A stretch of DNA of 64,000 nucleotides from Desulfobacterales bacterium (GCA_963678885.2 CAXXFG010000006.1:6344-70343), one strand, 5' to 3'; positions 13,198 to 63,290 are shown, counted from the first letter of the stretch. A program made the numbers and translations. Notes: a model not told the origin generated them from the sequence alone.

Positions 13198-13344
13198 CCC
13201 CCCAAATACAGGATTACCCAGGACCATATCATTGATGATCAAAGCGTAACCATCACCTATTATGTCTATTTCAGCCGAGATGAATACGGCCTTTGGAAAA
13301 TTGATAAATACTAAAAAGCTTTCTGGAAACAGGAGGACGCCTAA

Positions 13345-13941: not shown

Positions 13942-13969
13942 AGGATTAACTGAGTCGGAGGGATAGCTG

Positions 13970-15408: not shown

Positions 15409-15469
15409 GCCAAGCATTAAGGCGGCCCGACCCCAATATCGCCCTAATATCGCCCACCCCAATATCGCC
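15409..15469 (+). repeat. Reiterated Y1-element right ends
   Basis: After the right end plus GCC come a full second copy of AAGCATTAAGGCGGCCCGACCCCAATATCGCC, then CTAATATCGCC, then CACCCCAATATCGCC. AATATCGCC therefore occurs four times in 15,402-15,469. Confidence 0.85.
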
Positions 15470-47304: not shown

Positions 47305-48177
47305 TTATTCTTTCAGAAGGGTTTCCAGGGCGTGCAGTTTTTCTTCCGGCACGCGTCCCCTGGCCCGGGCAAGACCCACGGCGTGGCGGCCCAGGGTTTT
47401 GTAAGGCGCTGTCAGTGCCGGCAGTTTTTCCGCCATGGCGCTGAGATGATCCTTTACCGTGGCCGCATCCCCCCTGGAAATGGGGCCGGTGAGGGCGGCC
47501 GGGGGGGCGGACTTCTCCAGATTGCTGAGGGTGCCGTGGATGAGGGGGTAGAGAATTTGGACGGCGGCGTCCTTTTCGATCCCGGCGGATGCCATGAGCT
47601 GCAGCGCGATGTCCAGGAGCACCACAAGGTAGTTGGATGAAACCACGGCCGCGGCGTGGTAGAGGGACTTCGCCTCGGTCCTGATGGCGATGACATGCGC
47701 CCCCAGGTCCGTTGCGATGCGCCGGGCGGAGGTCACCGCCTCCGCGTCCCCCTCGACGGCGGCGATGATGCCCCGGAAGGGGCTTTCCCCTGTCGGGTCA
47801 CCTGCGAAACTTTGGAGCGGGTGCAGGGAGCCGATGAAGCACCCCGCCGTCCCGGCGGACGCAAGCAGGGTCGAGGGAAGCGATCCGCTGCAATGAAGCA
47901 CCACGGCACCTGATTTGAATCCGCCATGCGCTGCGATTTTCCGGCAGGCATCTTCTATGGCGCTGTCCGGCGTGGTGATGAAGACCACGTCTGCGGAAAC
48001 GGTCATCTCCCATGGGCGGGCACTAAAGGTTTCAACGCCGATCAACTCCGCCGCACGCCGGATCGATTCCAAGCGCTTGCCGGCCACGCCTGACAGGGGA
48101 TAGCCCGCTTGTTTCAGAAACCGGCCGAGGCTGGTTCCCACCTTTCCGCAGCCCACGATGGCGATGGATGGTTTCAT
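47305..48177 (-). CDS. Rossmann-like plus DUF2520 domain protein (ProC/F420-oxidoreductase-like)
   Basis: 290 aa with IAIVGCGKVGTSLG (dinucleotide fold), LHPLQSF, YHAAAVVSSNY and LTGPISRGD. Confidence 0.7.
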   Translation of the reverse strand: MKPSIAIVGCGKVGTSLGRFLKQAGYPLSGVAGKRLESIRRAAELIGVETFSARPWEMTVSADVVFITTPDSAIEDACRKIAAHGGFKSGAVVLHCSGSLPSTLLASAGTAGCFIGSLHPLQSFAGDPTGESPFRGIIAAVEGDAEAVTSARRIATDLGAHVIAIRTEAKSLYHAAAVVSSNYLVVLLDIALQLMASAGIEKDAAVQILYPLIHGTLSNLEKSAPPAALTGPISRGDAATVKDHLSAMAEKLPALTAPYKTLGRHAVGLARARGRVPEEKLHALETLLKE

Positions 48178-48691
48178 GGGAAAGACTTTCGAGGTTTAAG
48201 GGTTCGTGATTGGCCGACAACGCGAAACCTTTGGCCGGTTCGCTTCCGGGAAAGCAGCTTCGAGAATCTTTCGGATTCTTTCCCTTACGGTATCCAAAGT
48301 CTGCAATCAGGTCAACTGGTTCAGGGCGGATGCTCCTCCGGGAGGCTTCCGTAAGTTACTATTTGCTTATCAAAACAAGAGGTTCTCTCTATTTCGCTTG
48401 ACGAAAAGCATGGCAGGCTATAAGTGGTTTAAAGACCTCAGAGAGGGAAGGACCCATTATGGGCGCCGACGATCCCGTTTACATCAATGCCGACGGACCG
48501 TGCCTTCATCGCGTCTGTTCAGAGTGCGGTGGACTTCAAGGGGCCGGCGACCGCAGCTGTTTGAAAAATGAATTTCCCTCTATGGCCAAAATCTTCGGAA
48601 CTTCAGTTTTACCTTGCCCGCATCATAATGCAGCGTTTGTTTCCAGGATGAATCGCCTTTGTGCAATGGAATAAGAGACGGAGGATCGCTA

Positions 48692-49132
48692 ATGGATTGG
48701 TTGCAGATGACGGCACCCTGTGGCTTGGACTGCTTCAATTGTGTTTTTTATTTGGCCCATGAAAACCAAGAAGCAATGAACAGCGTTAAGATAATGTCAG
48801 CAGAATATAACGTCCCGGTTGAAACGATGCTCTGCAATGGCTGCCGCAACCACAATGGGCTGATACCGCTACAGATGCATCTCTTTGGTGAAGCGCATCG
48901 ATGTTCAGCCTATGAATGTGCTAAAAGCAAGGGATTGAAATTTTGTGGAAAATGTGACGCGTTTCCCTGTGATAACCTTCACCCTTATGCTGACAAGGCC
49001 GATATCCTGCCACATAATATCAAGGTGTTCAATCTGTGCCTGATTAACAAATTGGGATTGAAAAAATGGGCGGAATCCAAAGCCACGGAAGTGCGAAAAA
49101 CCTATTTCAACAAGCCATGGACTTTATCATAG
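48692..49132 (+). CDS. DUF3795-family Cys-rich protein
   Basis: GGAGG lies 8 nt before ATG 48692. The CGLDCFNC...CNGCR...C..C...CGKCDAFPC pattern fits DUF3795. The region is AT-richer than its surroundings. Confidence 0.65.
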   Translation: MDWLQMTAPCGLDCFNCVFYLAHENQEAMNSVKIMSAEYNVPVETMLCNGCRNHNGLIPLQMHLFGEAHRCSAYECAKSKGLKFCGKCDAFPCDNLHPYADKADILPHNIKVFNLCLINKLGLKKWAESKATEVRKTYFNKPWTLS

Positions 49133-49394
49133 GTAGCCAGGTGAATATACAAACACCGATTGCTGTGATGCCATCTCTGAAGAAAACAAACGAACGGCAC
49201 TGCTTGCCCTGATTGCGGTGGGCAGTTTGAGGATATGCATATTTTTGAACGCCACCCTTCAAGATCACGAGAACAAAGGATCATGATTTTTAAAAGAAGG
49301 AGATGAAATATCAGTCACCTCAACTGCGGGCCGGCAAAAGCCGCGCTGCGTCTTTTGCCAGCCGGATATGGACGTTTGGCAAAGGAGGGGTAAA

Positions 49395-50156
49395 ATGACA
49401 GCACCTTGGTATAAAAACACAGCCATATGGAGTACGGTCATTGCTTTATGCGCCTTAATCCTTTCACAATTGCCCCCGATTAATAAATGGTTACCAAAAC
49501 CGCACCTTACGATTTTGCACAGTGACCGCATCGGGATCAACAATGCGATAGGCTATATCGGCTTTAATCTGGTTGTTACACTTGAAAACCAAGGTAATAC
49601 CGCCGTAAATATAAATCGGATAGAATTAAGATTAAAGACGCCTGGCGGGGTGTTCAAGACATTGCCCGCTGAAACATACACCCGATCACGTGACGGCGTC
49701 TCGTTGCCCATCACCGCAATTAAGCTGTCACCCGGTGCCATATGGAGCGAGTTTGTTTTCTTCAACAAAACGCCAAGTCCAAAAATCGATGAAATGTATA
49801 ATCAAATCAAATTAGAAATCTCTCAAAGCATATTCGATGTAAAACAAAAAACACCGCGGGAACAATTTCAGTCCCATCAAGCCCTGGAGGCGGATGGCGC
49901 TCTTGTTGAAAAAGCCCTCGACTTCTTCGAAGAAAATTTCGACCTGGAAAAAGGGAAATATTTTGTAGAAATTGCAGCTTTTATTGAAAACAGGGAAAAA
50001 CCGTTCATACAAAACTCCGAATTTACAATTTACGAATATCATGTTCAAACAATTCGAGCGCAGACCAAGGATTACAAATATGGAGCTGGTATTTATTTCC
50101 CGAGCAGCGAAACAAAACAAGCTTGGGTAAAAATAGAGCCCAAGAATGCAAATTGA
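49395..50156 (+). CDS. Hypothetical membrane-anchored protein
   Basis: AAGGAGG precedes ATG 49395 (MTAPWYKN). One N-terminal helix (AIWSTVIALCALILSQL), then a beta-rich region. No motif recognised. Confidence 0.6.
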   Translation: MTAPWYKNTAIWSTVIALCALILSQLPPINKWLPKPHLTILHSDRIGINNAIGYIGFNLVVTLENQGNTAVNINRIELRLKTPGGVFKTLPAETYTRSRDGVSLPITAIKLSPGAIWSEFVFFNKTPSPKIDEMYNQIKLEISQSIFDVKQKTPREQFQSHQALEADGALVEKALDFFEENFDLEKGKYFVEIAAFIENREKPFIQNSEFTIYEYHVQTIRAQTKDYKYGAGIYFPSSETKQAWVKIEPKNAN

Positions 50157-50229
50157 CCCGGTCAGCCAAAAACACCCCACCGTTTCGTTCTAAGGAGCGC
50201 GACATTGCCGATGGCTTGTAACGCCACAT

Positions 50230-51369
50230 TCAGTGGGGGGCAAGGCCCACGATGTCGCCATCCTTCGGCAACCATGTTTTCCGGTAAACCGCCGGGGTGC
50301 ATCCGAACTGTTTGTTGAAAATGCGATAGAAAAATCCGATGTTCTCGTAGCCCACATCGTTGGCAACCATGGTGACAGGGAGGTTTGTGGTTTTCAGCAG
50401 GACACACGCCTGGTTGATTTTCACCTGATGGACGATGTCGATGAAGCCCATGCCGGTCAGTTTTTTAAGTATCTTGCTCAGGTACGTGGGGTGGAATCGG
50501 AACTGATGCGCCACGGATTCAAGGGTCACTTCTTTAAAATTTTGTTGGATGTACAGCACGATATCGGACACCTTCATGTTTTTGAGAACCGGCAGATTCT
50601 TTCTGTTGATATCCTTTTCGAAAACCTTCAGCATTTCGGCGAACAGGATGACCATATAAGATTTGATCACTTCATGGAAACACCTTCCCTGGTCGAAGTA
50701 TTCGCACAGGACCATCTTCATGAGTTGCTGGATTTTCGGGTTGTCGCCGGTGTGCAGAACGATGTGGTCATAATAGTTCTTGCTGTGGCAGACCGACTTT
50801 ATGAAGAACCGTGAAAATACGTCGTTGTTGATGAGCCTGCCAAAAAGCGACGCATCGAAAAAACTGTTTCGGATAAGGCAGTTGATAATGATGTCGTTTC
50901 TGCCGCACAAGCCGCTGCGGTGATAAGTGTGGGGGTCCAGGATGCAGAGTTCCCCCTTCTGAAGGTATGTGGGTCTGCCGTCAATGTCATTCCGGAATTT
51001 TCCATCGTAGACATAGATCATTTCTATGAACGTGTGGCGGTGGCAGGGCAGCTCCGCGTATCGCGGTTGGACCGAAAAGGCGATATCCCGGCCGTGGGGC
51101 ACAAACAAATCCTCACGCAGCGTCACGTTGTCGGCCTGGGTGAGGGCGTCGATAAGGTGGCCCTTGGTCAGGGGAGGGGCCTTGGGATTATTTTTGTCGA
51201 CGATTTCCGCCAGCTCGCTTTCGGGTAGATTCCGTTGCAGCGCGCCGGGCGTCAGCAGGAGCCTTTCGAGCTCGCTGTGATTCCTTAGAAACCTGTCAAG
51301 TTCTGCCTCTTGCATGCCCCTCCCCCCGTTTTGCAGGTAAACATCAGCGGAAAGACAATTAACCACCAT
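50230..51369 (-). CDS. AraC-family transcriptional regulator (cupin sensor plus HTH_18)
   Basis: The C-terminal double HTH reads TLESVAHQFRFHPTYLSKILKK ... VANDVGYENIGFFYRIFNKQFGCTPAVYRK. The start is uncertain (51369 or 51315). Confidence 0.8.
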   Translation of the reverse strand: MVVNCLSADVYLQNGGRGMQEAELDRFLRNHSELERLLLTPGALQRNLPESELAEIVDKNNPKAPPLTKGHLIDALTQADNVTLREDLFVPHGRDIAFSVQPRYAELPCHRHTFIEMIYVYDGKFRNDIDGRPTYLQKGELCILDPHTYHRSGLCGRNDIIINCLIRNSFFDASLFGRLINNDVFSRFFIKSVCHSKNYYDHIVLHTGDNPKIQQLMKMVLCEYFDQGRCFHEVIKSYMVILFAEMLKVFEKDINRKNLPVLKNMKVSDIVLYIQQNFKEVTLESVAHQFRFHPTYLSKILKKLTGMGFIDIVHQVKINQACVLLKTTNLPVTMVANDVGYENIGFFYRIFNKQFGCTPAVYRKTWLPKDGDIVGLAPH

Positions 51370-51744
51370 ATCCGCATTTCATCATATGACTGTTTCTGTC
51401 TTTTTCCTATCCGATATTGTCACACCCGTTGGTTTTTCCGCCTCCTTGTCGGCCCATTGAAAGGTTTTGGGCTTCGATGTCAATAGTCTGATACGTGGGG
51501 TTTCCTGCCTGGACACAACCCATAGAGGGGAACGCCTCTATGCCCTTTTATATTTGGCTCCCCGTGTGCAACCCTCTTCATAACCCTTCTCTTTCTCCCG
51601 CAGTTAACTGAAAACCTTCAATATCAATGGGTTATCAAATATCAGGCCGCTCCTGGTGAAGCGGAAGCGGCGTTGAGTCACATTTCCGGTTTGCTGTGGC
51701 TTCACAGTTCATGTCACAGCTCGACATTATTCCACGCCAATGGT

Positions 51745-52761
51745 TTAATTCCGGTTGTTTATCAAGTTGACGATCAGCTTGACCATGGTCTCTTTATCCA
51801 CAGGATTGCTTTCTGCGATCATCAGCGTGATGGCCACCAATGCGTTGTCGGCAATCCGCTTGAAGCCATCTTTGCGGTAAAGCGATTTGTTGCCGGCCAG
51901 AAAAGCGATGAACAGGGCTGCGGCGATACGTTTGTTACCGTCGCTGAAAGCGTGATTTTTGACCACAAAGTAAAGCAGGTTGGCGGCCTTCTCCTCAATG
52001 CTGGGATAGAGATCCTCACCGCCAAAAGTCTGATAGACCGCACCCAGCGCGCTTTTAAAGCCCTGATCCTTTTCCAGACCGAATAAGCCACCGAACTCCG
52101 TTCCCATGGCCTTGACGATTTCCATGGCCGCCTCATATGTCATTATAAATGGTGCCGGGCGCGATACCTCCTCGATGGTCAGCGTGCCGTGGTCAAATCG
52201 GTCTAGGGTCGTCAACGCATAGGCATAATCGGTGATGACTTGCAAAAGTCCTTTGGCTTCATCCAGACCGATGGCTTGGTGAGCCAACGTTTGTTCTAGA
52301 AGGTCAACAGTGCGCCGTAAATCAACCAGTTTTTGTTCCTGTTCCCGCAGCCGCTTTTCATTGAAGGTGAATCCCCTGATCAGGTGCTCCCGCAGCACAT
52401 TGGTGGCCCAGATTCGAAATTGGGTGCCGCGCCTGGACTTGACCCGGTATCCAACCGATATGATAACATCAAGATTGTAAAAATTGACCTTACGGCGAAC
52501 CCGCCGGCCACCTTCATTTTGAACTACCGAGGATTGCTCGGTGGTTCCCTTTCGGGGCAACTCGCCTTCTTTGTATATGTTACGGACGTGCAGGCCGATG
52601 GTGTCCGTATCCTTATCAAAGAGTTCGGCCATCTGACGTTGATTGAGCCAGACCGTTTCCTGTTCCAGGCGCACATCCAGCGCAGCCTTGCCGTCCGGCG
52701 ACCGATATAGAATGATCTCGCCTTTATCGGAACTTGCTGTTTTATAGGTTTTTTTTGCCAT
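51745..52761 (-). CDS. RhuM-family protein fused to a Fic/Doc domain
   Basis: 338 aa. The N-terminus LYRSPDGKAALDVRLEQETVWLNQRQMAELF is typical of RhuM. The C-terminal Fic motif HAFSDGNKR matches HxFx(D/E)GN(G/K)R. Confidence 0.8.
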   Translation of the reverse strand: MAKKTYKTASSDKGEIILYRSPDGKAALDVRLEQETVWLNQRQMAELFDKDTDTIGLHVRNIYKEGELPRKGTTEQSSVVQNEGGRRVRRKVNFYNLDVIISVGYRVKSRRGTQFRIWATNVLREHLIRGFTFNEKRLREQEQKLVDLRRTVDLLEQTLAHQAIGLDEAKGLLQVITDYAYALTTLDRFDHGTLTIEEVSRPAPFIMTYEAAMEIVKAMGTEFGGLFGLEKDQGFKSALGAVYQTFGGEDLYPSIEEKAANLLYFVVKNHAFSDGNKRIAAALFIAFLAGNKSLYRKDGFKRIADNALVAITLMIAESNPVDKETMVKLIVNLINNRN

Positions 52762-52882
52762 TAATCCGTTCTCGGAATATAATTTTCTTAGACAACATTT
52801 ACGCTGACCGATTCGCGACCCAATTCATTGGACATTATCCAATTGCCATACAGCGGATTTTTGCCATCGGGAGCATGAACCC

Positions 52883-53515
52883 TCAATCATCCGGTCCCCG
52901 GTGGGCGGTGGCGTCTTCGTCGATCCAGTCCTCTTCGGTGTAGGACATGCCTTTGCGCCCCGGCACCTTGCGTGTCGGTCCGGGCTTGTAAAGAGCACAG
53001 CTTTTCGGACCGTAACAGAAGGTTTCGAAACGGTACCGTTTCTTGGACGGATTCCAGTGGTCGATGATCATCTCCGCCGGCATTCGACAGCCCCAGATAC
53101 AGGTCGTGCACTTGGTGTCATGAGTCCGGATGTCCAGACGCCGATGTCCACGGCTGCGATAGGTTTCCAGATCAGGTGGCACGCCATGGAACGGTGGGCC
53201 AGCCAGGAAATCACCTTCAGCATCATTTATTATTTTCAGACCGCTTGTCTTGTAGAATCCGGCCGTCTCAAGCTGCGGGTCAGGAACGGGAACCGCCTGA
53301 CCACTTGCCTCCATACCTGCACGGAAACGGTGCTTCGCTTGTGCGGCCTTTCCAATGGCGATTATGAATTCGCCGGGTTCATCCGCGATTGTTCCGTCAA
53401 CCCAAAGCACATATCCCAGGTAGCTGTGGCTCCGCTCGTCGAAAGACCGCATCAGCCGGATGCGGGGCTGAACGGACAGGATTTTTCCGAGCCATCCAAT
53501 TTTATTCGTTCTCAC
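52883..53515 (-). CDS. Hypothetical protein X3 (possible OB-like N-terminus, Cys-rich C-terminus)
   Basis: 210 aa. The GTG start at 53515 follows GGGAGG and overlaps the upstream gene by 14 nt. Five Cys lie in CTTCIWGC...(24 aa)...CYGPKSC. No family recognised. Confidence 0.6.
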   Translation of the reverse strand: MRTNKIGWLGKILSVQPRIRLMRSFDERSHSYLGYVLWVDGTIADEPGEFIIAIGKAAQAKHRFRAGMEASGQAVPVPDPQLETAGFYKTSGLKIINDAEGDFLAGPPFHGVPPDLETYRSRGHRRLDIRTHDTKCTTCIWGCRMPAEMIIDHWNPSKKRYRFETFCYGPKSCALYKPGPTRKVPGRKGMSYTEEDWIDEDATAHRGPDD

Positions 53516-54737
53516 GATCCTCCCAAGTTGTTTTTGCCTTCACCTCATCAATAAAAAACCGCACCCCCTGGTTGTCCGACGGGTTCAGCCAGAGCATCTT
53601 CTCAAATATGTGCTCCGCCTCGACAAAGCGTCCAAGCCGCCAGAGACACAATCCATAACCGTGCATGCAGCGCAGAAACGGACGGTTGTCGATAAGGCCC
53701 CACGCTAGCACGCCAGTAAAGCCATCACCCAAAGACAGCTTGCCGATGCGCAGGCCAACTTCGTAATACCGGATGGCATCCTTGGGATGGTGGTCAAAGA
53801 CGAAATTGCCCAGATGCGAATGGGCATCGAGACAACGCAGGTCCGCCTGGCACAGCTGCATCAAAATCTTTTCCGCCTCTGCCCGCTCGCCGGCATCTTT
53901 GAGATCATTGGACCGGGTGATGGGGTCGTTGAAAGGATCGTCAGGGTCCTCGCCGGGCAGCACCTGCTCCATTTCGAACATGGGGCGGGGGCCGTGAGCC
54001 ATGATCGGCTTGGCCCAATCCTCGATGGGTTCGTCTTCTTCTCCCCAATACTCCTCCTTGGGGTCCCACATGCCCATCTCTGCAAGCCCCAGAGGGACCA
54101 GACCTAAGGCCTGGACGTCGATTTGAGTCGACTGAATTTCGCCGGAAAGATACGGATGACCGCCGTAACGCCACTGCTTTCGGGGCGTCACCGTGACGAT
54201 GGCGCCAGGCACCACCTCCCAAAGACGGCTTGCGCGCAGGGTAATGATCCGGTCGCTTCCCAGCAAACGGCACCGGGCGGCCCGCTCCATGACCGATAGG
54301 GCGACCAATTCAACGGGTTTGCTCAGGTCGATGTCGTCGTCTGTGGCTTTGTGCTGCCTGCGGCGTCTGGAGGTTTTTTGCACCTCGGCAGGGTAAGGAT
54401 CGAGGTTGAGCCACCTGCGGTAAGCGGCGATGTAGCGCGCCCCTGTCGATGCCTGCGGCAACACGACCTCGGAGACCGCAATTACATATTCCGATCCGTC
54501 CTCGCGACGGCACTTTGCCGTCAGACCGCGCCGTTCATTGCCATCGTAGTCCACCGCGATCACCGAAACCGGCTCCCCGATGACGAAACCGTCGGCCGGC
54601 AGGGCAACGTCATCCTCAAAGGCTTGCCGAAAGGCCCATAGCTGTTCATCATCGCCGTATGCGTCGACGGTGATTTCCTCAATAAGCCTGCTCAAGTCTT
54701 CGAGTTCCTTACCCTCTTTGGGGCTTCGCGTGCTCAT
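53502..54737 (-). CDS. Hypothetical protein X2 (small beta domain of the so-called calcium-binding-protein type, plus a helical repeat C-terminus)
   Basis: 411 aa with an ATGA overlap with X1. The N-terminus EEITVDAYGDDEQLWAFRQAFEDDVALPADGFVIGEPVSVIAVDYDG...GLTAKCRREDG resembles a widespread uncharacterised domain. The C-terminus (RCLDAHSHLGN...NRPFLRCMHGYGLCLWRLGRFVEAEHIFEKMLWLNPSDNQG) looks TPR-like. Confidence 0.65.
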   Translation of the reverse strand: MSTRSPKEGKELEDLSRLIEEITVDAYGDDEQLWAFRQAFEDDVALPADGFVIGEPVSVIAVDYDGNERRGLTAKCRREDGSEYVIAVSEVVLPQASTGARYIAAYRRWLNLDPYPAEVQKTSRRRRQHKATDDDIDLSKPVELVALSVMERAARCRLLGSDRIITLRASRLWEVVPGAIVTVTPRKQWRYGGHPYLSGEIQSTQIDVQALGLVPLGLAEMGMWDPKEEYWGEEDEPIEDWAKPIMAHGPRPMFEMEQVLPGEDPDDPFNDPITRSNDLKDAGERAEAEKILMQLCQADLRCLDAHSHLGNFVFDHHPKDAIRYYEVGLRIGKLSLGDGFTGVLAWGLIDNRPFLRCMHGYGLCLWRLGRFVEAEHIFEKMLWLNPSDNQGVRFFIDEVKAKTTWEDRENE

Positions 54738-55894
54738 CTTTTATTGATCTTCCAGATGCCGGCCTTCTCCAAGCGTTGAATCAGCGCCTTACGCCGCAGG
54801 TGGTCGGCCATGAATTTTTTCAATTCTTGTTGAAATTTCTTTTTGGTCGCAAACAGGTCATAGGCTTCGGCGATGTCGACGAGTATACGGCAGGCCTCGT
54901 CATAGCCCCGCCCCGATCCGCGCTCGACGGGTTCTTTGACCGACGCCCAGGCCTTGGGAAAATCGCTGGACAGATTCTTCAGATACGCCTTGCGTTTCTC
55001 GCGGCGTTTTATCTCCCGTTGCTTTCGGTCTCGTTTTTGTTTTTCCATCCGGATTAGACGCGCCTTTTCGGCGTTCTGCCGCAGTTCTCCCACCGTACGC
55101 CGGGGTGCGTCGGTATCGCCCGTCTGTAAGCCGCGCCGCCATGAAGCAAACCGGTTCCTGATGGACCGTTCGGCCTGCTGCCCCTTGCCCTCCAGCAATT
55201 GTTTCAGGATTGAATTGACCTCTTCTCTTGGCAGGGCATCGATCCATTTTTCCATTTCCCGCCGTGAAACTTCCGTCTCCTGCGCAGCCGGGCTGCTCAT
55301 GCCGGCGCCGGCCAGCAGGTCCGGGTCCACCTCCAGAAATTCGGCCAGGGCCTGCTGGGCCGCCGTCGGGTTTGCCAATCCGCTCACGCACAGCGGCTCC
55401 GTCTTATCGTCATCCATCATCTCTCCGGCCACGGCCGCCAGCCAACCGATGTACAAGCTGCGCAAATCCCCACGCAGCAGTTCATCCCGCACCGGGGCCA
55501 GCCGCGCCATCCAGCCGCGTCCGTCCTCCATGCCCAAGCGATCGTAGTTTTCCGACTCCTGCAAACGCCAGGTAATGATCCAATGGGCCTTGGTGGGCTT
55601 GATATCCAACAAGTACGGCACTGCCGCAGCTTTGGCGGTCTCTCGGTTCAAGGCCTCCATGGGCAGGCGCACCATGAAAATGGCCGTCATCCAGTTGGCC
55701 ACATAGACATGGGCATCGAAATAGCGCTCCATCAACTTGTGGGGGTCGCCCTTGAAATCACCCCAATTGTATTCGTTGGTGAAGCTGACCGGCGTGATTG
55801 TGGCCCGCGTCGAGAGCGCCCGCAACTCTTCCATTTCATCCGCCGTTAGCGGCCGGTCCATGGCCAGAAACTCGTAGTATTGGTATTCGCTCAT
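54734..55894 (-). CDS. Hypothetical protein X1 (conserved N-terminal domain, highly charged coiled middle)
   Basis: 386 aa. The N-terminus is MSEYQYYEFLAMDRPLTADEMEELRALSTRATITPVSFTNEYNWGDFKGDP. The central Lys/Arg/Glu block is EKARLIRMEKQKRDRKQREIKRREKRKAYL. No catalytic motif recognised. Confidence 0.65.
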   Translation of the reverse strand: MSEYQYYEFLAMDRPLTADEMEELRALSTRATITPVSFTNEYNWGDFKGDPHKLMERYFDAHVYVANWMTAIFMVRLPMEALNRETAKAAAVPYLLDIKPTKAHWIITWRLQESENYDRLGMEDGRGWMARLAPVRDELLRGDLRSLYIGWLAAVAGEMMDDDKTEPLCVSGLANPTAAQQALAEFLEVDPDLLAGAGMSSPAAQETEVSRREMEKWIDALPREEVNSILKQLLEGKGQQAERSIRNRFASWRRGLQTGDTDAPRRTVGELRQNAEKARLIRMEKQKRDRKQREIKRREKRKAYLKNLSSDFPKAWASVKEPVERGSGRGYDEACRILVDIAEAYDLFATKKKFQQELKKFMADHLRRKALIQRLEKAGIWKINKR

Positions 55895-56144
55895 GGGTTC
55901 AGTTCAGCCTTTATCCGCCGGTATTGGTCCGGATATTTACGTTCGAGCCCCCAGACGGCCTTTTTGGGAAAATTGCGTCAGCTGTAAAGAAATCCTTTAC
56001 AACTGAATTCCAGATAAAACATATATGCGTATTGGGGTCCTTTAAATACCTAATTTATCGGATATTTCCCCTGTTTCGTCATCTTTCATTGGATTGGACT
56101 TGTTTCAATCTGAACTTGTAAACCTATTTGCTTAATAGCGAAAA

Positions 56145-56161
56145 AATAGCGCAACGCTATT
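56145..56161 (-). terminator. Possible weak terminator hairpin after the AlbA_2-type gene
   Basis: On the minus strand this reads AATAGCG-TTG-CGCTATT followed by TTTT, 16 nt after stop TAG 56177-56179. The stem is short and AT-rich, so support is weak. Confidence 0.35.
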
Positions 56162-56176
56162 TCACAATTAGCTTCG

Positions 56177-57640
56177 CTATTCATTCGTCTTCCTCAGCCG
56201 GTAAACCGCACCCCGACCCCGCCCCATCGATTCAACAAGGTCAAGTCGACGAAGGTGTGCGAGGTCTTCCTGAATCATTCGATCCGAGGGCGGTGCCGAT
56301 AGACGTTTTCGTATTTCTCGAAGAGGCGCAGGACCCAATTGTGCTAATATTTGAAGCAATTCCCGCTGACGCCCGGTCAGGTCATGGGCGACACGATGCG
56401 GCGCGATATAGCCACTGGGCAGGAAGCGTACCCAGACACTGCCGGCCTGTTCACCAAATTCCGGCTCCGGGTGTCCGGCCTTGACACATAATTCCACAAT
56501 CTTTTGCGTTCCTCGCCCCCATCGCTCAATCATACCGCGCAAATAAAACACCTGTGCAATGATTGGATTGCGTGGCCTGGAAGCGTGATCGCGCTTCAAA
56601 TCCTCGGGTTTCAGATTAAACGGTAGGGTTCCATCGCTCCAGATCTCAAGCCGGTCATCATAGATAGCCAGACTCACCGCACCACCGGCAATGGTATAAT
56701 CCCTGTGGCAAAAGGCATTGACCAGGGCCTCACGCAGGGCTTCAAGCGGAAACAATGGTTCGTCTTCCCGCTCGAAAAGGCCGGGGACGATCCGCCCGGC
56801 TACTGGCAAATGGCGGCGCAGAAACAACATGGCTTCTTCAAGCAGGTAAAAGGCATTCCCTTCAATTTGTCTCTGATCAAGAAACTCGGATTTGTTCACG
56901 CCCCGAAAGCGGGCAAGGCGCAACTGGCATTGCGGATAATCCGGCATGAAGCGGGAACCAAACAAAACGACAGCAGCCTGATTGGGACGGCCGTCCCGAA
57001 ACAAACTCAACCGTTCCAGAATATCCGGAATAGCGCTACCGGTTGACTCAGGCAAACGGCCGGCTGCAATGCCAAGGCGCACCGTGCGAAGAATTTCTTC
57101 AGAATCCATGTCGGCGATTTCACAGCCTTCGGCCGCTTGGTTTTCCCATCGGATGCGGCTGTGCGCTCTCTCATTGAGAAGGCGCTGATAGGTTGTCTGG
57201 GGCATGATCGAGGTCGTTGAACCAATCCGCTGGTATGCTCGCCCATCAAAGGCGTACGGACGAGACTCGGGATTGGGAATCGCTTCCAGTACCAGCGCCT
57301 CTTTGTTATCCATGACATTCACACGGGCCTGGACAATAGATGCTGGCGGTTCGAACTTCTGAAGCACTTCCGCCACTTCCCGGATCGTCTTATCGGAAAC
57401 TGTCTGACCGAGGATGCGGCCTTCCGGCGTGACACCGACCAACACCCGGCCGCCGGTTCCGTTGAGCATGCCACAGAGGGTCTCGGCAGCCCGCCGCAAC
57501 TGACCTGTGGATTTTTTAAATTCCACTGTCTCCGACTCGCCGACAGATACAATTTTTTTTAGCTCCCTGATATCCATTTCCAACTCATCATTATGGTCCT
57601 TATGTTCAAATTGGCGCTCCCGTATCACGCAGGATGGCAA
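56177..57640 (-). CDS. AlbA_2 (Schlafen-like divergent AAA) plus HATPase_c_4 plus wHTH ATP-binding protein
   Basis: ESETVEFKKSTGQLRRAAETLCGMLNGTGGRVLVGV is typical of the AlbA_2 domain. LREALVNAFCHRDYTIAGGAVSLAIYDDRLEIWSDG and MIERWGRGTQKI are typical of the RecG-C-terminal-like ATPase domain. The probable true start is Met at 57577 (MDIRELKK). Confidence 0.8.
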   Translation of the reverse strand: MPSCVIRERQFEHKDHNDELEMDIRELKKIVSVGESETVEFKKSTGQLRRAAETLCGMLNGTGGRVLVGVTPEGRILGQTVSDKTIREVAEVLQKFEPPASIVQARVNVMDNKEALVLEAIPNPESRPYAFDGRAYQRIGSTTSIMPQTTYQRLLNERAHSRIRWENQAAEGCEIADMDSEEILRTVRLGIAAGRLPESTGSAIPDILERLSLFRDGRPNQAAVVLFGSRFMPDYPQCQLRLARFRGVNKSEFLDQRQIEGNAFYLLEEAMLFLRRHLPVAGRIVPGLFEREDEPLFPLEALREALVNAFCHRDYTIAGGAVSLAIYDDRLEIWSDGTLPFNLKPEDLKRDHASRPRNPIIAQVFYLRGMIERWGRGTQKIVELCVKAGHPEPEFGEQAGSVWVRFLPSGYIAPHRVAHDLTGRQRELLQILAQLGPAPLREIRKRLSAPPSDRMIQEDLAHLRRLDLVESMGRGRGAVYRLRKTNE

Positions 57641-57892
57641 CTATTTCGGTTTTCACTTTATTCGGAATCTCAGCTGCTTGCGAAATAGGCACATACTTGA
57701 ATGTTGTCAGATCAAAAGGCACTTTATCATTCCGGTTGCGTGGTTCGAAAAGGAAAATGAGGCGATTCAGTTATGGCGTCTGTTTGAAAGGCAGCCCTCC
57801 GTCCAAATGAAAGGTTTCATGCCGGCCAAATGAAACGTTTTGCGCTTCGATACCAACAACCTGAAATACCATTTTACTCCTAAACCCAATGG

Positions 57893-60800
57893 CTAACCCC
57901 GCAAATCCGGTTCATCCTTCGATCGGATGGCTTCAAAAATCTCCCTGGCTAAAATGGGAAAGGCGGCCCTCTGAAACTCCTGATCCGCCATGTAACGGGT
58001 GACGATCTTGTCGTTTTCGGCCATGCGGTCGATCATCAGGTCTTCGATCAATTTGCGGATTCCCAGCACGAACTTATCCAGTGGGTTGGCCATGGCCGTC
58101 TGAACGACCTGATCGTTTTTGCAGGCCTTTTCTTTGATCTGTTGAAAAAACAAGCGGTCTTCCTCGCTAAAGCTGGTGCCGAACCGCTCATTGAGAACCT
58201 GAATAATCTCCGACAACGGCGCCTTGTCATCCTTGGCCTTGCCTGTGCCAACATCCGTGGGGCTTTTCACATACTGGGCTTCGCCTTCCTTGACTTCGAT
58301 CGCCCCAAAATAAACGCGCTCCATACGGTAGTACTGCAACGCCACGTTGTCGGTCAGCTTGATGGTCAGCGGGTCCCGGTCGATGGGCAGATGCGGCAGG
58401 AGAAACCTTCCATAACTGTACAGCATCTCCAGTTCCGGATCGGCATAGGGAATGATCTGGGATAAAAAGGCATACAGGCGAATGTACCCGCTCAATTTAT
58501 CACGAAACGCCTGCCGCTTTTCATCCTCCTTGACAGCCTTGAAACGGTCCACGGCCGGTTGGAGATACCGTTGCATATGCGCATGGTCCGCGGCGTTTTG
58601 TCGCTCCATGGGCTTGTAGAACACCTGGGAAAAGGCCTCGACCTCACTCCAGTGGTAGATTTGCATCTGATTCAGCTCATGCTTGAGCGTTTCGAGTTTG
58701 GACGGGTCGGACACCTCGGCCAGCCCGGTCTTGTCGTAATAGGGTTTGAAGGCCCGGAAAATATCTTCGGCATGGTTGACGAAATCCAGCACAAAAGGCG
58801 CGTCTTTTCCCGGAATCATGCGGTTGAGCCGTGAAAGGGTCTGCACGGCCTGCACCCCGTCCAGGCGCTTGTCCACATACATCGTGTGCAGCAGGGGCTG
58901 GTCGAAACCGGTCTGGTATTTGTTGGCCACCAGCAGGATCTGATAATCGGGGGAGTTAAAGCGCTCGGGTAACTGGGCTTCGCTGATGGGCTTGCCGCTG
59001 ACCACGTCGATGTTCATCCCCGGCTCGGTGTACTCCCCGCCGTATTCCGGATCTCTGACCGTCCCGCTGAAGGCCACCAGGGGGCGGACATCCTGATACC
59101 CGTTATCGGCGATATAACGCTCGAAGGCTTTCATGTAGCGAACCGCGTGCAGGCGCGAGGACGTCACCACCATGGCCTTGGCTCTGCCGCCGATGCGCTG
59201 CTTGACGCTGCGGCGGAAATGCTCCACCATCACCTCTGTTTTCTGCTCGATGTTATGGGGATGCAGGCTCATGAACTTGGCCAGGGCCCTGGAGGTCTTT
59301 TTCTTCGGCAGCGCCGGGTCCTCCTCGGCCGCCTTGAGCAGCCGATAGTAAACGCCGTAGGTGGTGTAATTGGTTAAAACATCGAGGACAAACCGCTCCT
59401 CGATGGCCTGGCGCATGCTGTAAATATGAAACGGCTCCGGCTTTCCCTCCGGCCCGGTGCGCCCGAACAGCTCAATGGTCTTTCCCTTGGGCGTGGCCGT
59501 GAAGGCGAAGAAGCTCAGGTTGGGTTGCCGTCCTCGGGAGAGCATCACCTGGTTCAGCCGGTCTTCCCAGTCCACCTCGCCCTCCTCGGTTTCGCCAGGG
59601 GCCGCGCCCAGGATGGATTTAAGTTCCCGGGCCGTCTCACCGGTCTGGCTGGAGTGGGCTTCGTCCACAATCACGGCATACCTGCGGGCCGAAATGGCAT
59701 TCTCCCATTGCCGGGCCTGCTCCTTTTCCTCTGCCGTCGCCTCTTCCGCGCTGTCCGCCCCGGCCGCCGTGAGCAGCCCCCGCAGCACAAAGGGAAACTT
59801 CTGCAAGGTGGTGATGACGATCTGGGTGCCGTCGATCAGGGCCTCGGCCAGCTGCCTGGAATCCTGATCAATGGGCCTCACCACACCCTGTGCGTGTTCG
59901 ATCTGGTAGATGGCATCCTGAAGCTGCCGGTCCAGCACACGCCGATCGGTGATCACGATCACGCAGTCAAAAACCTTTTGATCCTGGGCGTCATGCAGGC
60001 TGGCCAGCCGGTGGGAGAGCCAGGAGATGCTGTTTGTCTTGCCGCTGCCGGCCGAGTGCTGGATCAGATAGTTGTTGCCTGGGCCTTCCTGTCGCGCGGA
60101 CGCAACGATCCGGCGCACGGCGTCTAGCTGATGGAAGCGGGGGAAAATCAGTTTTTCCCGGGTGATGCGCCGCATGTCGCCCCGGCCGTCATCGACCTTT
60201 TCATCCCTGGTTTCAATGAACATGAAATGGCCGAGAATATCCAGAAAGCTGTCCTGTCGCAGCACCTCTTCCCAGAAATATCCCGTGCGGTAGCCGGAGG
60301 CGTGTTGGGGGTTGCCCGCCCCGCACTGCACCTGGCCCGGATGACTGCCGCGGTTGAAGGGCAGAAAGTGCGTGGCCGCTTTTTGCAGCCGGGTGGTCAT
60401 GTGAACCTCGTCCGGGTCCACGGCAAAATGCACCAGCGCCCGTGTCTTGAAGCCGAACAGCGGCGCGCGCGGGTCCCGATCCTCCCGGTATTGCTTCACC
60501 GCCCTTCGCCAGCTTTGTCCGGTACCGGGATTCTTCAGCTCGCAGGTGGCCACGGGCAAGCCGTTCAGGGAAAGCAGCATGTCCACGGTCTCGTGGCTGC
60601 CGGGGTGGCAAAGGGCCTGCCGATTTACAAACAGCCGGTTTTTGGCATACAGGGCCAGCACCTCTTCGTTGAGACCGTGGGCCGGTTTAAAATAGGCTAT
60701 GCGGAAGATCCTGCCGTAAAACTTGAACCCGTGGCGCAACACGTGGAGCATGCCCTTGACGTTCAGCTCTTTGACCAGCGTGTTGAGCAGCAGGCCTTCC

Positions 60801-60997
60801 AATCCGCTGCCGTGCAGCGACCGCATCTGTTCCCATAGCTCGGCTTGGGTCTCCTGCAAAAAGGCGAAGATCCGCGCCGGGAAAAGGGCTCGCTCCGCAT
60901 CCCACTCGGCGTTGGTGCCGGGCCGCCAGCCGCTTTGCTGCAGCAGAACTTCTTCCACATGGGTTTCAAAGGCTTTTTCGGATGTCTGTGCGGCCAT
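57893..60997 (-). CDS. hsdR: Type I restriction enzyme R subunit
   Basis: 1,034 aa. The N-terminus AFETHVEEVLL resembles the nuclease region. Walker A is in QHSAGSGKTNS, DEAH box in VIVDEAHSSQTG and helicase motif VI in QTLSRLNR. Confidence 0.9.
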   Translation of the reverse strand: MAAQTSEKAFETHVEEVLLQQSGWRPGTNAEWDAERALFPARIFAFLQETQAELWEQMRSLHGSGLEGLLLNTLVKELNVKGMLHVLRHGFKFYGRIFRIAYFKPAHGLNEEVLALYAKNRLFVNRQALCHPGSHETVDMLLSLNGLPVATCELKNPGTGQSWRRAVKQYREDRDPRAPLFGFKTRALVHFAVDPDEVHMTTRLQKAATHFLPFNRGSHPGQVQCGAGNPQHASGYRTGYFWEEVLRQDSFLDILGHFMFIETRDEKVDDGRGDMRRITREKLIFPRFHQLDAVRRIVASARQEGPGNNYLIQHSAGSGKTNSISWLSHRLASLHDAQDQKVFDCVIVITDRRVLDRQLQDAIYQIEHAQGVVRPIDQDSRQLAEALIDGTQIVITTLQKFPFVLRGLLTAAGADSAEEATAEEKEQARQWENAISARRYAVIVDEAHSSQTGETARELKSILGAAPGETEEGEVDWEDRLNQVMLSRGRQPNLSFFAFTATPKGKTIELFGRTGPEGKPEPFHIYSMRQAIEERFVLDVLTNYTTYGVYYRLLKAAEEDPALPKKKTSRALAKFMSLHPHNIEQKTEVMVEHFRRSVKQRIGGRAKAMVVTSSRLHAVRYMKAFERYIADNGYQDVRPLVAFSGTVRDPEYGGEYTEPGMNIDVVSGKPISEAQLPERFNSPDYQILLVANKYQTGFDQPLLHTMYVDKRLDGVQAVQTLSRLNRMIPGKDAPFVLDFVNHAEDIFRAFKPYYDKTGLAEVSDPSKLETLKHELNQMQIYHWSEVEAFSQVFYKPMERQNAADHAHMQRYLQPAVDRFKAVKEDEKRQAFRDKLSGYIRLYAFLSQIIPYADPELEMLYSYGRFLLPHLPIDRDPLTIKLTDNVALQYYRMERVYFGAIEVKEGEAQYVKSPTDVGTGKAKDDKAPLSEIIQVLNERFGTSFSEEDRLFFQQIKEKACKNDQVVQTAMANPLDKFVLGIRKLIEDLMIDRMAENDKIVTRYMADQEFQRAAFPILAREIFEAIRSKDEPDLRG

Positions 60998-61014
60998 GGG
61001 AATCTTTCCTTATC

Positions 61015-61929
61015 CTATATGGTGCCCTTGATCTCGAACACCCGGTACTTCAGCCATTTGGCAATGCCATCGAGGTCCGGAAACAGTTGCCGGTCAAAGA
61101 CGCCGTATTGGTCCAGGCGCCGCCGGATATCGTCATGGGCCTTGTGCTTGATGATAATTTCCAAACAATCCTTCTCTTCCAGGACCTGCAAGGGCTGGTG
61201 GCAGGCCAGCAGCACCCCGTCCTGGGCCCGGATGCGCGGTGAAACATGCGGCGGGTCGTAGATGACATTCTCTCTGATCTCGAAAGGTGCAGGGATTGGG
61301 AGAGGCGTTTTAGCTGTTTCCTCCTCGTCAGGATCTGAATCGGTTATCCTGATTTCATCTTCGTGATCACAGGGTTCACCGTATTCTTCGGCATCTGTGT
61401 CATCAATGCCAAAATCCGCATAGCCCGCGTCGTCTTTGGCCGCTTCCGTAAGGGTGTCGCCAACCGGTTTGATTGCCGGTTGCTGGTTGCGCTTGAAGTC
61501 CGAATAGTGCGGGGGATCGCTGATCAGCACGTAGACGGCGCTGTTGAGAGGCTTGCCGCCATCATCGATTTTCGTTTGACGCACGGCAAAATAGAGCGCC
61601 ACCAGGGGATTGGTGGTCCAGTCCATGAATCGCGTGGGCAGGCCGTGGTGCTGGGCAATGGCCAGCGCCTCCCATTCGCTGCGGGGAAGGTGCTGCACAT
61701 AGGTGACCAAATGGTTGCTGAACACCTCCAGCACTTCCCGCTCAAGCTGGTCACGCCTATAAAAAGAAAGATCCTTCAGGTGTTCATAGCGCCCGATGGA
61801 CGGCCGCAGGGTGTAGCCGGTCGCCGCTGTTTTGCTCTGTCCCCGGAAGTATTTCCGTCCTTCGGGCAACTCATCCCGAACGGTTTTCAGATATTCTTCG
61901 AAGCTTTCAATTTCAAATGGAGTGGTCAT
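61015..61929 (-). CDS. FRG-domain protein embedded in the type I R-M operon
   Basis: 304 aa. Contains YFRGQS, AIAQHHGLPTRFMDWTTNPLVALYFA and PRIRAQDGVLL, the FRG-domain signature. An acidic insert reads DDTDAEEYGEPCDHEDEIRITDSDPDEEE. Its ATG overlaps the hsdS stop (ATGA), and it ends 17 nt before the hsdR start. Confidence 0.8.
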   Translation of the reverse strand: MTTPFEIESFEEYLKTVRDELPEGRKYFRGQSKTAATGYTLRPSIGRYEHLKDLSFYRRDQLEREVLEVFSNHLVTYVQHLPRSEWEALAIAQHHGLPTRFMDWTTNPLVALYFAVRQTKIDDGGKPLNSAVYVLISDPPHYSDFKRNQQPAIKPVGDTLTEAAKDDAGYADFGIDDTDAEEYGEPCDHEDEIRITDSDPDEEETAKTPLPIPAPFEIRENVIYDPPHVSPRIRAQDGVLLACHQPLQVLEEKDCLEIIIKHKAHDDIRRRLDQYGVFDRQLFPDLDGIAKWLKYRVFEIKGTI

Positions 61930-63290
61930 GCCTGAATCTCTCTTACGTCGATTTTGCCAGTAACCGCAGCGGTGATCAGGGCGGTTCGGTATTCTTGCAA
62001 CCGCTCAATCGCAGATTCAGTTTTTTTTACTAGTTTATCGATTTTATCGGTTTCTATTTCTATGTAGGCCGAGATTGCAGTTTGCTCAAAGATTGGGGGA
62101 ACGGTGACTCTACAATCCAAAAGTTCTTTGTCTGAAATATTTGGTTGTGCACCCCCAAATGCTGTAAGCAAAATGTGCTCAATATAGAAACTTGAATTAA
62201 GCAAATACCATAAAAAACCAGAATCAAATGATCTGTTTGCACGAAAAATACAAACTCTTTGATTCAGTAAAGCCGGTTTATCTGATTCATAACGACCCGC
62301 CTTTCCGATCGTGGCCCCTGTCATCGCCATTACGATATCACCGCCATGAATCATGACTTTTTTATATATTTGACCAAACTCATCGGGTAGATGCTTGGCA
62401 TTCGACAAATCGACATTGCCATCCTTTTTTATATCGCCGATTCTTACAAGTGGGATTCCATCATCAACAAAATCATCGCTACTAAAGGCATATCCAGTTA
62501 TTACGGATGCAACATACTTCATGGGCTTTATATCCCAATGCTCAGGCACATCCCCCAGCCACTCCACCCCCGAGGGCTTGAGCTTGGGGTAAGTGTCGAG
62601 TCCAGCAGCCCGGGCCGTCTCGGGTGGCAGGCCGCGGGTGACGGTGCGCGAGATGAGGGCTGATCGCTTTTCCTTCAACTTTTCAATCAGCGTATGTTTT
62701 TTTGATAAAAGGGTGTCGATCTTTTTCGTCTCACTATCAAGGAAATCGGCAATTAATCTTTGTTCTGGATTTGGTGGGAACGGTACCGGGAAATTTTTGT
62801 TAAAATCTGGCGGGACCCTTTTTTGGCCCCCCGCTCCATACATTTCTGCTTCGCCATTACGGCGGTATGCAGAAGACATGGTTAAGTAAAACAAAAACCG
62901 CCTTACAAGCTGTTGCGAAACTCGCAAAACATGAAGTTCTGTAGTGCCAAAGGCTGCACCATTAACCATACCTTCAGCTATCGCCCCCTTATAATTTTCA
63001 AAGCATGGAGTTATTTTTGCAACAATAACATCTCCATCTTGAAATTCTGTGTAGCCAGAACCAACCTCTCCAACTTGGCGCGTATTTTCTAGATTTAGGC
63101 CGCCATGCTCTGCTATGGCCTCCATTGGGATAAAGGAAATTTCATCTTCTAAATCGAGCGCTCTTATGCGATCAGAACGAGGGTTGATTTTCATACAAAA
63201 CCGGCCGCGTTTTATCACCCAATGCTCCGGCACATTTCCCAACCACTCCACCCCACTGTCCTGATATTTCGAATACGCCCTGTACTTCAC
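61926..63290 (-). CDS. hsdS: Type I R-M specificity subunit (two target-recognition domains)
   Basis: 454 aa. The two halves each begin with GVEWLG(N/D)VPEHW. The conserved spacer helices are LLSKKHTLIEKLKEKRSALISRTVTRGL and the C-terminal ERLQEYRTALITAAVTGKIDV. The GTG start overlaps the hsdM stop. Confidence 0.85.
   Translation of the reverse strand: MKYRAYSKYQDSGVEWLGNVPEHWVIKRGRFCMKINPRSDRIRALDLEDEISFIPMEAIAEHGGLNLENTRQVGEVGSGYTEFQDGDVIVAKITPCFENYKGAIAEGMVNGAAFGTTELHVLRVSQQLVRRFLFYLTMSSAYRRNGEAEMYGAGGQKRVPPDFNKNFPVPFPPNPEQRLIADFLDSETKKIDTLLSKKHTLIEKLKEKRSALISRTVTRGLPPETARAAGLDTYPKLKPSGVEWLGDVPEHWDIKPMKYVASVITGYAFSSDDFVDDGIPLVRIGDIKKDGNVDLSNAKHLPDEFGQIYKKVMIHGGDIVMAMTGATIGKAGRYESDKPALLNQRVCIFRANRSFDSGFLWYLLNSSFYIEHILLTAFGGAQPNISDKELLDCRVTVPPIFEQTAISAYIEIETDKIDKLVKKTESAIERLQEYRTALITAAVTGKIDVREIQA

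Follow-up and report, generated by a model that had tools for sequence, protein, structure and literature searches.

Three orphan genes beside a type I restriction-modification block as probable modules of an ordered, mobile accessory array

Three genes without a recognisable family, here called X1, X2 and X3, lie on the minus strand of a 64,000-nucleotide (nt) stretch of DNA from a Desulfobacterales bacterium (GCA_963678885.2, CAXXFG010000006.1:6344-70343; the whole stretch is referred to below as the window), between a Fic gene and a type I restriction-modification (R-M) block. An earlier sequence-only reading took the three for a translationally coupled operon, co-expressed in fixed stoichiometry, and for a candidate undescribed defence or conflict system. 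This raises the question of whether X1, X2 and X3 belong together as a unit. A comparison with related loci suggests that they do not: they are probably separable modules of an ordered, horizontally mobile accessory array found in defence islands, frequently right after type I R-M genes, rather than a self-contained trio.

We compared 79 X1-centred genome loci, 80 X3-centred metagenome loci and nine X2-centred loci, about 170 in all, which are labelled L plus a number where they have to be told apart. These share one gene order, (hsdR)-(AlbA_2/YhcG/AAA_14)-X1-X2-DUF6880-X3-Fic-EL, in which the Fic position holds either a RhuM-Fic or a SoFic gene and EL is a conserved non-coding end element. 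Counted as co-oriented pairs within 6 kb, forward to reverse, the order is almost invariant: X1 before X2 (41:1) and before DUF6880 (23:0), X2 before DUF6880 (19:0) and before X3 (7:2), DUF6880 before X3 (15:3), X3 before Fic (7:1) and before EL (15:0), and Fic before EL (6:0). Any subset of the modules may be missing and truncated remnants are common. The whole array, X1-X2-DUF6880-X3-SoFic-EL, is present in L051; L006 carries X1-DUF6880-X3-Fic-EL, L025 carries X1-X2-DUF6880-Fic-EL, L029 holds a partial array with DUF6880 after X2, and in L169 X2 is followed by an internally deleted DUF6880 remnant and then X3. Among the loci examined, none had an array in which all five genes were intact and without frameshifts, and those of L051 and L025 might have arisen as errors in long-read sequencing. 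Furthermore, blocks of DNA homology begin and end at gene boundaries, which, together with the near-invariant order and the frequent remnants, indicates differential deletion from an ordered array and not free shuffling. The variants seen in different lineages thus reflect the loss of one or more modules by deletion.

The modules are also frequently found alone. Classified by content, 50 loci hold X3 only, 27 hold X1 only, 18 hold X1-X2, and few hold all three. X1, X2 and X3 occur in this order only in the window, L024, L016, L051 and L067; among these, L024 and L016 carry an N-terminally deleted X2 (with X3 fragmented as well in L016), L051 has DUF6880 between X2 and X3, and L067 consists of remnants. 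The trio on which the sequence-only reading built its fixed-stoichiometry system is present in only about 3-5 of the roughly 170 loci, X3 and X1 being mostly solo. By the refuting condition named in that reading, lack of co-occurrence elsewhere, the idea of such a system fails in part. X2 immediately follows X1 in 24 of the 52 informative X1 loci. Elsewhere X1 is followed by HEAT-repeat, SEC-C or AEP-TOTE proteins, and X1 relatives of 35-57% identity stand alone. For X2, an accompanying X1 is missing in L164, L165, L169 and L170 and apparently also in L171-173, whose upstream sequence gave no recognisable X1; the gene after X2 is usually that of a 448-amino-acid (aa) DUF6880 protein (8/20). 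X3, in turn, may be preceded by DUF6880, X1, X2, YhcG, AlbA_2 or hsdR, and a Fic gene often comes next. The only pair that behaves as co-inherited is X1-X2, as judged from the ATGA overlap kept between them and from synonymous divergence (dS), which matches for the two genes within each locus.

Upstream of X1, an AlbA_2 gene is directly adjacent in 6 of the 48 X1 loci scored, and about 12 loci have AlbA_2 homologues in the vicinity of X1. As a separate observation, the array may favour a particular chromosomal site, since hisS and aspS precede it by a few genes in the Desulfobacterales loci L003, L030 and L042, and inverted in L089; in L003 and L042 the gene directly before X1 is then AlbA_2.

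The junction between X2 and X3 provides a direct view of how the window arrangement came about. In line with the sequence-only reading, the X3 GTG start overlaps X2 by 14 nt and is preceded by GGGAGG at a spacing of four nucleotides (GGGAGG-N4-GTG), and X1 and X2 share an ATGA. What these features mean at the X2/X3 junction is a different matter. Every X2 gene ends in TGG GAG GAT CGT GAR AAC GAN TAA, whatever gene follows (in the window TGG GAG GAT CGT GAG AAC GAA TAA, encoding W-E-D-R-E-N-E-stop), and the identical end stands before DUF6880 in L029, L170 and L173. GGGAGG and GTG thus lie within X2's conserved W-E-D-R codons and do not reflect a dedicated ribosome-binding site and start. In the window, L087 and L024, the sequence after the X2 stop, TAAAAT joined to TGGATGG, runs into about codon 9 of X3; the corresponding region of X3 in L006 and L089 reads ..AAAATTGAATGG. 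As these junction sequences show, a deletion at the AAAAT microhomology removed DUF6880 together with the native start of X3 (about nine codons), creating the 14-nt overlap. The proposed sign of translational coupling is accordingly better read as a deletion scar in X2's own codons. An analogous deletion has left X1-(DUF6880 tail)-X3 in L091, and DUF6880 remnants are seen in L169, L085/86 and L091. The 84-90-aa open reading frames (ORFs) after X2 in L170 and L173 are DUF6880 N-termini; the junction sequences rule out that they are X3 fragments. L024 carries ATG in place of the X3 GTG, which suggests that this start is used.

X1, X2 and X3 are nevertheless genuine protein-coding genes under purifying selection. 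The ratio of nonsynonymous to synonymous divergence (dN/dS) is 0.10-0.27 across the three (7 or 8 loci per gene), with 0.11-0.21 for X1, and dS between the window and a 244-kb Acidobacteriota contig is only about 0.3; taken together, these values indicate purifying selection and recent horizontal transfer. Because solo X1 and X3 are kept under purifying selection too, each module is presumably functional on its own as well. Each of the three has more than 3500 homologues. Those listed are 75-93% identical, and their bins are classified as Desulfobacterota, Acidobacteriota, Sumerlaeia, Verrucomicrobia, Dehalococcoidales, Clostridiaceae, Bacteroidota, Lentisphaerae, Marinimicrobia and others, with 80-90% identical copies in Acidobacteriota, Verrucomicrobia, Dehalococcoidales, Clostridiaceae and Bacteroidetes bins. 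X1 relatives are carried on plasmids of Paraburkholderia, Rhodococcus, Streptomyces, Nostoc and Acinetobacter; plasmid relatives of X3 were not found. None of the three families has a match in 50,697 phage genomes, and X1 relatives occur in one of 2.9 million viral contigs.

The array is closed at its 3' side by EL, an element of about 135-170 nt that caps arrays whatever their last gene. Searches with nhmmer detected it in 31 loci at E<=1e-3 (22 at E<1e-15; for example L006:5034-5200, L025:14914-15079, L029:5720-5886 and about 20 others), always co-oriented with the last module and 3' of it. In order, EL has one to four direct repeats of GCTGTGACA, a conserved GC hairpin and a U-rich tract (window 51647-51664), and then a sequence resembling a ribosome-binding site, GGGAGAAAGAGAA, followed by an ATG-initiated mini-ORF (MKRVAHGEP...) whose few substitutions are all synonymous and in third positions. 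Homology ends directly before an intrinsic terminator, the stem of which is different in each locus (window 51521-51542). A structured RNA was considered and set aside: EL matches no Rfam family (E<=1, window 48000-64000), its folding z-score is 0.14, and only one or two compensatory pairs were seen. Nor does it look like one end of a two-ended mobile element, as the window contains no further copy, inverted or otherwise, and apparent recombinase matches proved to be EL itself on the opposite strand. EL is essentially absent from viral contigs; in the sole exception (L174:1529-3088, IMGVR_UViG_3300001095_000096) it directly adjoins the ORF of a large serine recombinase, which runs into EL, and no recombinase recurs beside EL outside L174. 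One further copy (L007:4160-4195) carries an inserted perfect 30-nt hairpin, CCTGCCTGCGCCGAGGCTTCGGCAGGCAGG, which separates the conserved hairpin from the core downstream of it.

The proteins themselves offer few familiar features. As the sequence-only reading had it, X1-X3 are orphans with no recognisable enzyme motif: none belongs to a Pfam, NCBIfam, PADLOC or PHROG family, even with the Pfam threshold relaxed to E<=10, and sequence and profile searches against the PDB found no match for any of them. A check against known defence systems likewise recognised none of the three among 5027 PADLOC models (PADLOC-DB v2.0.0, E<=0.01); PADLOC families were recognised in the genes on either side, Fic, FRG and AlbA_2.

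X1 is the most widespread module of the array, with 3970 clusters at the 50% identity level (E<1e-3), nearly all of about 380 aa. A conserved alpha/beta domain forms its N-terminus, and an acidic linker leads from there to an EPPVPPGL..LAEFL motif; a strongly basic coiled coil (about aa 268-305) comes next, and the protein ends in a helical bundle. A diverse alignment bore out the predicted conserved N-terminal domain and basic coiled segment; the N-terminal motif, YQYYEF..DRPL..NxYxWG, is nearly invariant among 60 relatives of 33-66% identity. X1 has no PDB sequence match in either single-sequence or diverse-profile searches. Its AlphaFold2 (AF2) model has a predicted local distance difference test (pLDDT) score of 52 and is confident only at aa 290-380; the N-terminal domain scores below 55, which makes fold comparison meaningless, and Foldseek searches with the model returned only noise. 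Domain fusions were uninformative as a clue to function among 150 diverse X1 relatives, the X1 and X2 profiles proved to be unrelated, and a stand-alone 'CcbP-like' ORF beside a distant X1 (L076) turned out to be a truncated X2 remnant. Separately, an orphan family of about 107 aa without a Pfam match (cluster c13; GxWxIxEME..WD..) lies directly before X1 in L036:9530-9847, L060:9674-9997, L054, L064, L034 and L022, one of these next to an X1 of 44% identity.

In X2, a small N-terminal domain (about aa 15-126) is followed by a middle region, an acidic linker and a TPR-like C-terminus. The sequence-only reading had described a calcium-binding-like beta domain with a helical-repeat C-terminus. 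The latter stands, if only as sub-threshold TPR matches at aa 355-388, whereas the former amounts to a faint Pfam CcbP signal (E=0.13, aa 17-52) that found no support in PDB searches with X2 sub-domains. These sub-domain searches and profile searches detected no OB or CSD domain in X2. A variant without residues 1-126 recurs in L003, L011, L016 and L024 with an identical breakpoint in all four, equivalent to window position 54358, which indicates that the N-terminal domain is separable. Weak matches to the X2 C-terminal half are found on several hundred plasmids, mostly of Enterobacteriaceae, and include a 267-aa protein on an E. coli IncHI2 plasmid (L167; NZ_CP098380.1, 5899-8077) encoded directly upstream of an FRG-domain gene; the window's hsd locus also embeds an FRG gene. 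The likeness of the X2 C-terminal half to these enterobacterial plasmid proteins does not exceed TPR-level similarity and was set aside as uninformative.

X3 carries a five-cysteine (plus histidine) cluster in its C-terminal half. The cluster was correctly picked out from the sequence: C136, C139, C143, C167 and C173 are invariant in 35 of 35 homologues. The AF2 model of X3 has an overall pLDDT of 57 and of 72-87 for the N-terminal domain, in which the first 100 or so residues are predicted to form a five-stranded barrel with one helix, in OB topology. The best Foldseek matches are the OB folds of the AspRS anticodon domain, RPA, SSB and PriB (E 5e-3 to 0.1). The models of X1 and X3 are poor because the alignments behind them are shallow, and the OB assignment is tentative for this reason. 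As an observation in its own right, an orphan family of about 112-126 aa (cluster c8), again with no Pfam match, lies before X3 in L120:2016-2396 and in 10 other loci.

In the window, the three minus-strand reading frames have exactly the extents that had been claimed, and the surroundings were also described correctly, as shown by ORF, Pfam and PADLOC analysis (Table 1). The order hsdM-hsdS-FRG-hsdR-AlbA_2-X1-X2-X3 runs along a single strand, and the RhuM-Fic gene starts 121 nt past the X3 stop on the same strand, where Fic genes are frequent downstream neighbours elsewhere as well. It is the sole gene with a catalytic domain downstream of X1-X3 on their strand. On the coding strand, neither a sigma-70-like promoter nor a terminator was predicted in the interval from X1 to Fic; a hairpin with a T-run can be read by eye after the AlbA_2 stop, at about 56141-56163. 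Base composition divides the window into zones of about 45% GC (1-15500), about 61% (16000-48000) and a mosaic of 44-61% (48000-64000); the array falls in the mosaic zone, which starts near 48200. A low-GC part at 48600-51400 holds a Cys-rich 157-aa ORF, a 262-aa orphan and an AraC-type regulator.

Table 1. Features of the array and its surroundings in the window (positions counted from the first nucleotide of the stretch)
Feature	Position	Strand	Description
EL, conserved non-coding end element	51554-51720	(-)	nhmmer and alignments
RhuM-Fic gene	51745-52761	(-)	Pfam RhuM 1e-25, Fic 3.5e-13; PADLOC candidate PDC-S23 2.9e-136
X3	52883-53515	(-)	210 aa, GTG start; orphan protein
X2/X3 junction, read as a deletion scar	53502-53525	(-)	Junction sequence comparison
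X2	53502-54737	(-)	411 aa, ATG start; orphan protein
X1	54734-55894	(-)	386 aa, ATG start; orphan protein
AlbA_2 (Schlafen-like)/HATPase_c_4 gene	56177-57640	(-)	Pfam; directly upstream of X1
hsdR	57893-60997	(-)	Type I R-M block, 57893-63976
FRG gene, embedded in hsd block	61015-61929	(-)	Pfam FRG; PADLOC PDC-S15
hsdS	61926-63290	(-)	Type I R-M block
hsdM, 3' part	63287-63976	(-)	Type I R-M block

The assignment of the array to defence islands derives from its neighbours. Among 150 ORFs sampled randomly within three genes of the modules, Pfam identified DUF6880 (9), Fic (7), AlbA_2/HATPase_c_4 (5), RhuM (3), AEP-TOTE (3), ResIII (3) and AAA_21 (3), and PADLOC identified SoFic (7), PDC-S24 (5) and PDC-S62 (4), along with PDC-S05 and PDC-S23. 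Genes of the hsd type lie upstream of X1, X2 or X3 in L010, L013, L015, L147, L163, L165, L170 and L173: the layout hsdM-hsdS-...-AlbA_2-X1-X2 recurs in L163, an Acidobacteriota contig, hsdR or a ResIII gene directly precedes X2 in L165 and L170, and hsd genes adjoin the modules in L173. AbiE is also among the defence genes near the modules. AEP-TOTE (PF22548) primase-helicase genes adjoin X1 in three distant lineages, namely in L040:4503-8127, with an 11-nt overlap between the gene and the X1 stop, on a Paraburkholderia plasmid (L080, 3219-8206) and on an Acinetobacter towneri plasmid (L081, 5986-13483); in Acinetobacter a SEC-C protein is encoded directly before X1. They occur near X1 in L006, L001, L065 and L039 as well, several of them in separate operons. 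Integrase, transposase and conjugation genes did not recur beside the modules in neighbour scans, and profile searches found no transposase or integrase domains. We found no mention of DUF6880 in the literature.

Several points weigh against reading X1-X3 as separable accessory modules of defence islands. Scored in loci of at least 6 kb, so that the counts are lower bounds, type I R-M genes accompany only 9 of 57 X1 loci and 2 of 29 X3 loci (and 4 of 6 X2 loci), and any marker defence gene is present in 29 of 57 X1 and 10 of 29 X3 loci. Many X3 contexts hold housekeeping genes, such as those for histidine kinases, transporters and tRNA synthetases; the defence-rich neighbourhood pointed out in the sequence-only reading does recur in other loci. 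The assignment to defence draws on a single kind of evidence, gene neighbourhood, and the OB-like fold predicted for X3 is tentative. For short contigs, errors in the binning of metagenome-assembled genomes could inflate the apparent spread across phyla. Finally, strict colinearity together with many decayed copies could equally be the signature of one ancestral multi-gene system that requires every part and is eroding.

With these points in mind, it seems reasonable to suggest what the modules might do. None of X1-X3 appears to be an enzyme, and a role as non-enzymatic sensors or adaptors is the most likely one. X1, with its N-terminal domain, acidic linker, coiled coil and helical bundle, is most likely a protein-binding sensor or adaptor, and the same holds for X2, with its small N-terminal domain and TPR-like region; the conserved ATGA coupling and the co-inheritance of their genes suggest that the two probably pair up. 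X3 is most likely a nucleic acid binder, judging from its predicted OB-like fold and the invariant five-cysteine site. The probable role of X1-X3 would be accessory defence against mobile elements, in which they would sense a cue from the invader and modulate an adjacent effector. The effector may be the Fic AMPylase in the window and HsdR or an AEP-TOTE primase-helicase elsewhere.

Other readings of the same data were considered. The first is that X1-X2-DUF6880-X3-Fic-EL makes up an undescribed multi-component immune system spreading between phyla, of which the window trio is a functional minimal derivative. This we regard as unlikely. The OB/five-cysteine, TPR/helical-repeat and coiled-coil proteins would then act as sensors controlling the Fic AMPylase, EL would be a cis-regulatory RNA or a boundary site, and the logic of the system might be related to that of TOTE systems.

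A second reading treats the five genes X1-X2-DUF6880-X3-Fic, along with EL in the role of a cis element, as one ancestral multi-component system, and takes the window and most other loci for eroding, partly non-functional derivatives. We consider this unlikely on balance. It would account for the almost invariant order, for the whole array in L051, for the many truncated or internally deleted remnants and for the way EL caps any last gene, but it sits poorly with solo X1 and X3 copies that are intact, numerous and under purifying selection, with distant X1 relatives (35-45% identity) that in no case have the other modules, with two unrelated Fic families that swap at the effector position, and with the lack of an intact, frameshift-free five-gene locus.

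It is also conceivable, if rather unlikely, that the genes have no role in defence and are selfish or neutral island cargo, regulators of R-M or Fic (for restriction control, or antitoxin-like), or immunity or anti-defence proteins of mobile elements. Non-enzymatic proteins rich in repeat and adaptor-type domains would suit such roles, X1 relatives are found on conjugative or mobilizable plasmids amid toxin-antitoxin genes, many X3 loci have housekeeping neighbours, and spread across phyla is typical of mobile cargo. Against this, the families are nearly absent from phages, and the genes that recur next to them are defence genes and not those for integrases, transposases or conjugation.

The dedicated system first proposed, in which X1-X2-X3, possibly with the Fic effector, would be held in fixed stoichiometry by translational coupling, we now consider improbable. 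The overlaps are real, the X1/X2 ATGA junction is kept in 24 loci with matching dS, the X2/X3 scar has been inherited in L087 and L024 (the latter with the change of start codon that suggests use), and a Fic gene is often next. Yet the trio is confined to a handful of loci, X3 usually occurs without X1 and X2, X2 is usually followed by DUF6880, the presumed ribosome-binding site and start are X2 codons at a junction made by deletion, and solo copies are under purifying selection.

Very improbable, lastly, is a divergent TOTE-type conflict system with X2 as the TPR, X3 as the OB and X1 as a cryptic TBP-like component and with Fic or the AEP-helicase as effector: although it fits the sub-threshold TPR signals of X2, the OB-like fold of X3 and the AEP-TOTE genes beside X1 in L040 and on the Acinetobacter and Paraburkholderia plasmids (3 of the 150 sampled neighbours), X1-X3 match no TOTE-derived Pfam model even at E<=10, TOTE has a fused TPR-CSD protein where the array has TPR and OB in separate, separable genes, no TBP fold was detected in X1 by Pfam, PDB sequence or Foldseek searches (the model being too poor to judge), and the AEP-TOTE genes of L006, L001 and L065 lie within their own AbiEi/AbiEii operon on the opposite strand.

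The reading of X1-X3 as separable accessory modules, which we prefer, bears on more than this locus. X1-X3 represent large families that travel between phyla in defence islands without Pfam, NCBIfam, PADLOC or PHROG coverage. If they are true immune components, they would add new non-enzymatic sensor or adaptor families to bacterial immunity and give DUF6880 a function. In addition, the X2/X3 junction illustrates that tight gene overlaps may be deletion scars and not evidence of a designed complex, which calls for caution whenever a system is deduced from a single locus.

How, then, does the array compare with known systems? It resembles integron cassette arrays in its co-oriented, tightly packed genes, variable content and a non-coding element at one end, but differs in having a fixed gene order that varies by deletion and not by cassette insertion. 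No integrase was found in window positions 48000-64000 and none recurs in the loci, and there are no attC-like sites between the genes, which in the window overlap or abut without intergenic repeats. It also differs from a Fic/Doc toxin-antitoxin module, in which a small antitoxin gene sits right before the toxin gene and occurs together with it: X3 lies 121 nt from Fic, a Fic gene comes next in no more than about 7-13 X3 loci, and these Fic genes belong to two unrelated families. TOTE conflict systems, which Aravind, Iyer and Burroughs are said to have described in 2022, are closer in their components, given the TPR signals in X2, the OB-like fold predicted for X3 and the AEP-TOTE genes beside X1 relatives. 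The name stands for 'TPR, OB, TBP, Effector' (PMC12458937). In the window, by contrast, TPR and OB are in separate, dispensable genes, neither X2 nor X3 shows the TPR-CSD fusion, no TBP was found, and the effector is Fic, an AEP-helicase or RNase H gene being absent. The likeness to the SoFic and RhuM-Fic defence candidates lies in the position of these genes as the usual last coding module of X1-X3 arrays, and as the sole enzyme of the window's co-directional unit Fic is a plausible output; X1-X3 themselves, however, show no catalytic motif, whether of the Fic type or another. The alternation of two unrelated Fic families at that position, together with the many arrays without Fic, means that a dedicated X-Fic partnership is not established.

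The closest parallel is with accessory genes embedded in R-M loci, for which PrrC/RloC in type I R-M loci are the paradigm. X1-X3 are co-oriented with, and immediately downstream of, hsdMS-FRG-hsdR-AlbA_2, the families adjoin hsd genes in other phyla, and the neighbouring FRG (PDC-S15) and RhuM-Fic (PDC-S23) genes are themselves candidates of this kind. They differ in lying after hsdR and not between hsd genes, and most copies, X3 especially, are away from recognisable R-M genes. The 'guilt-by-embedding' study of Payne et al. reports that, of the genes nested within Hma, BREX, DISARM and type I R-M systems, over half are still unassigned and likely to act in defence (bioRxiv 10.1101/2024.01.29.577857). 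X1-X3 are absent from the PADLOC candidates of that study; their adjacency to R-M genes recurs in unrelated genomes, if in a minority of loci, and on this basis we propose X1, X2 and X3 as new candidate members of the R-M-linked class of defence genes.

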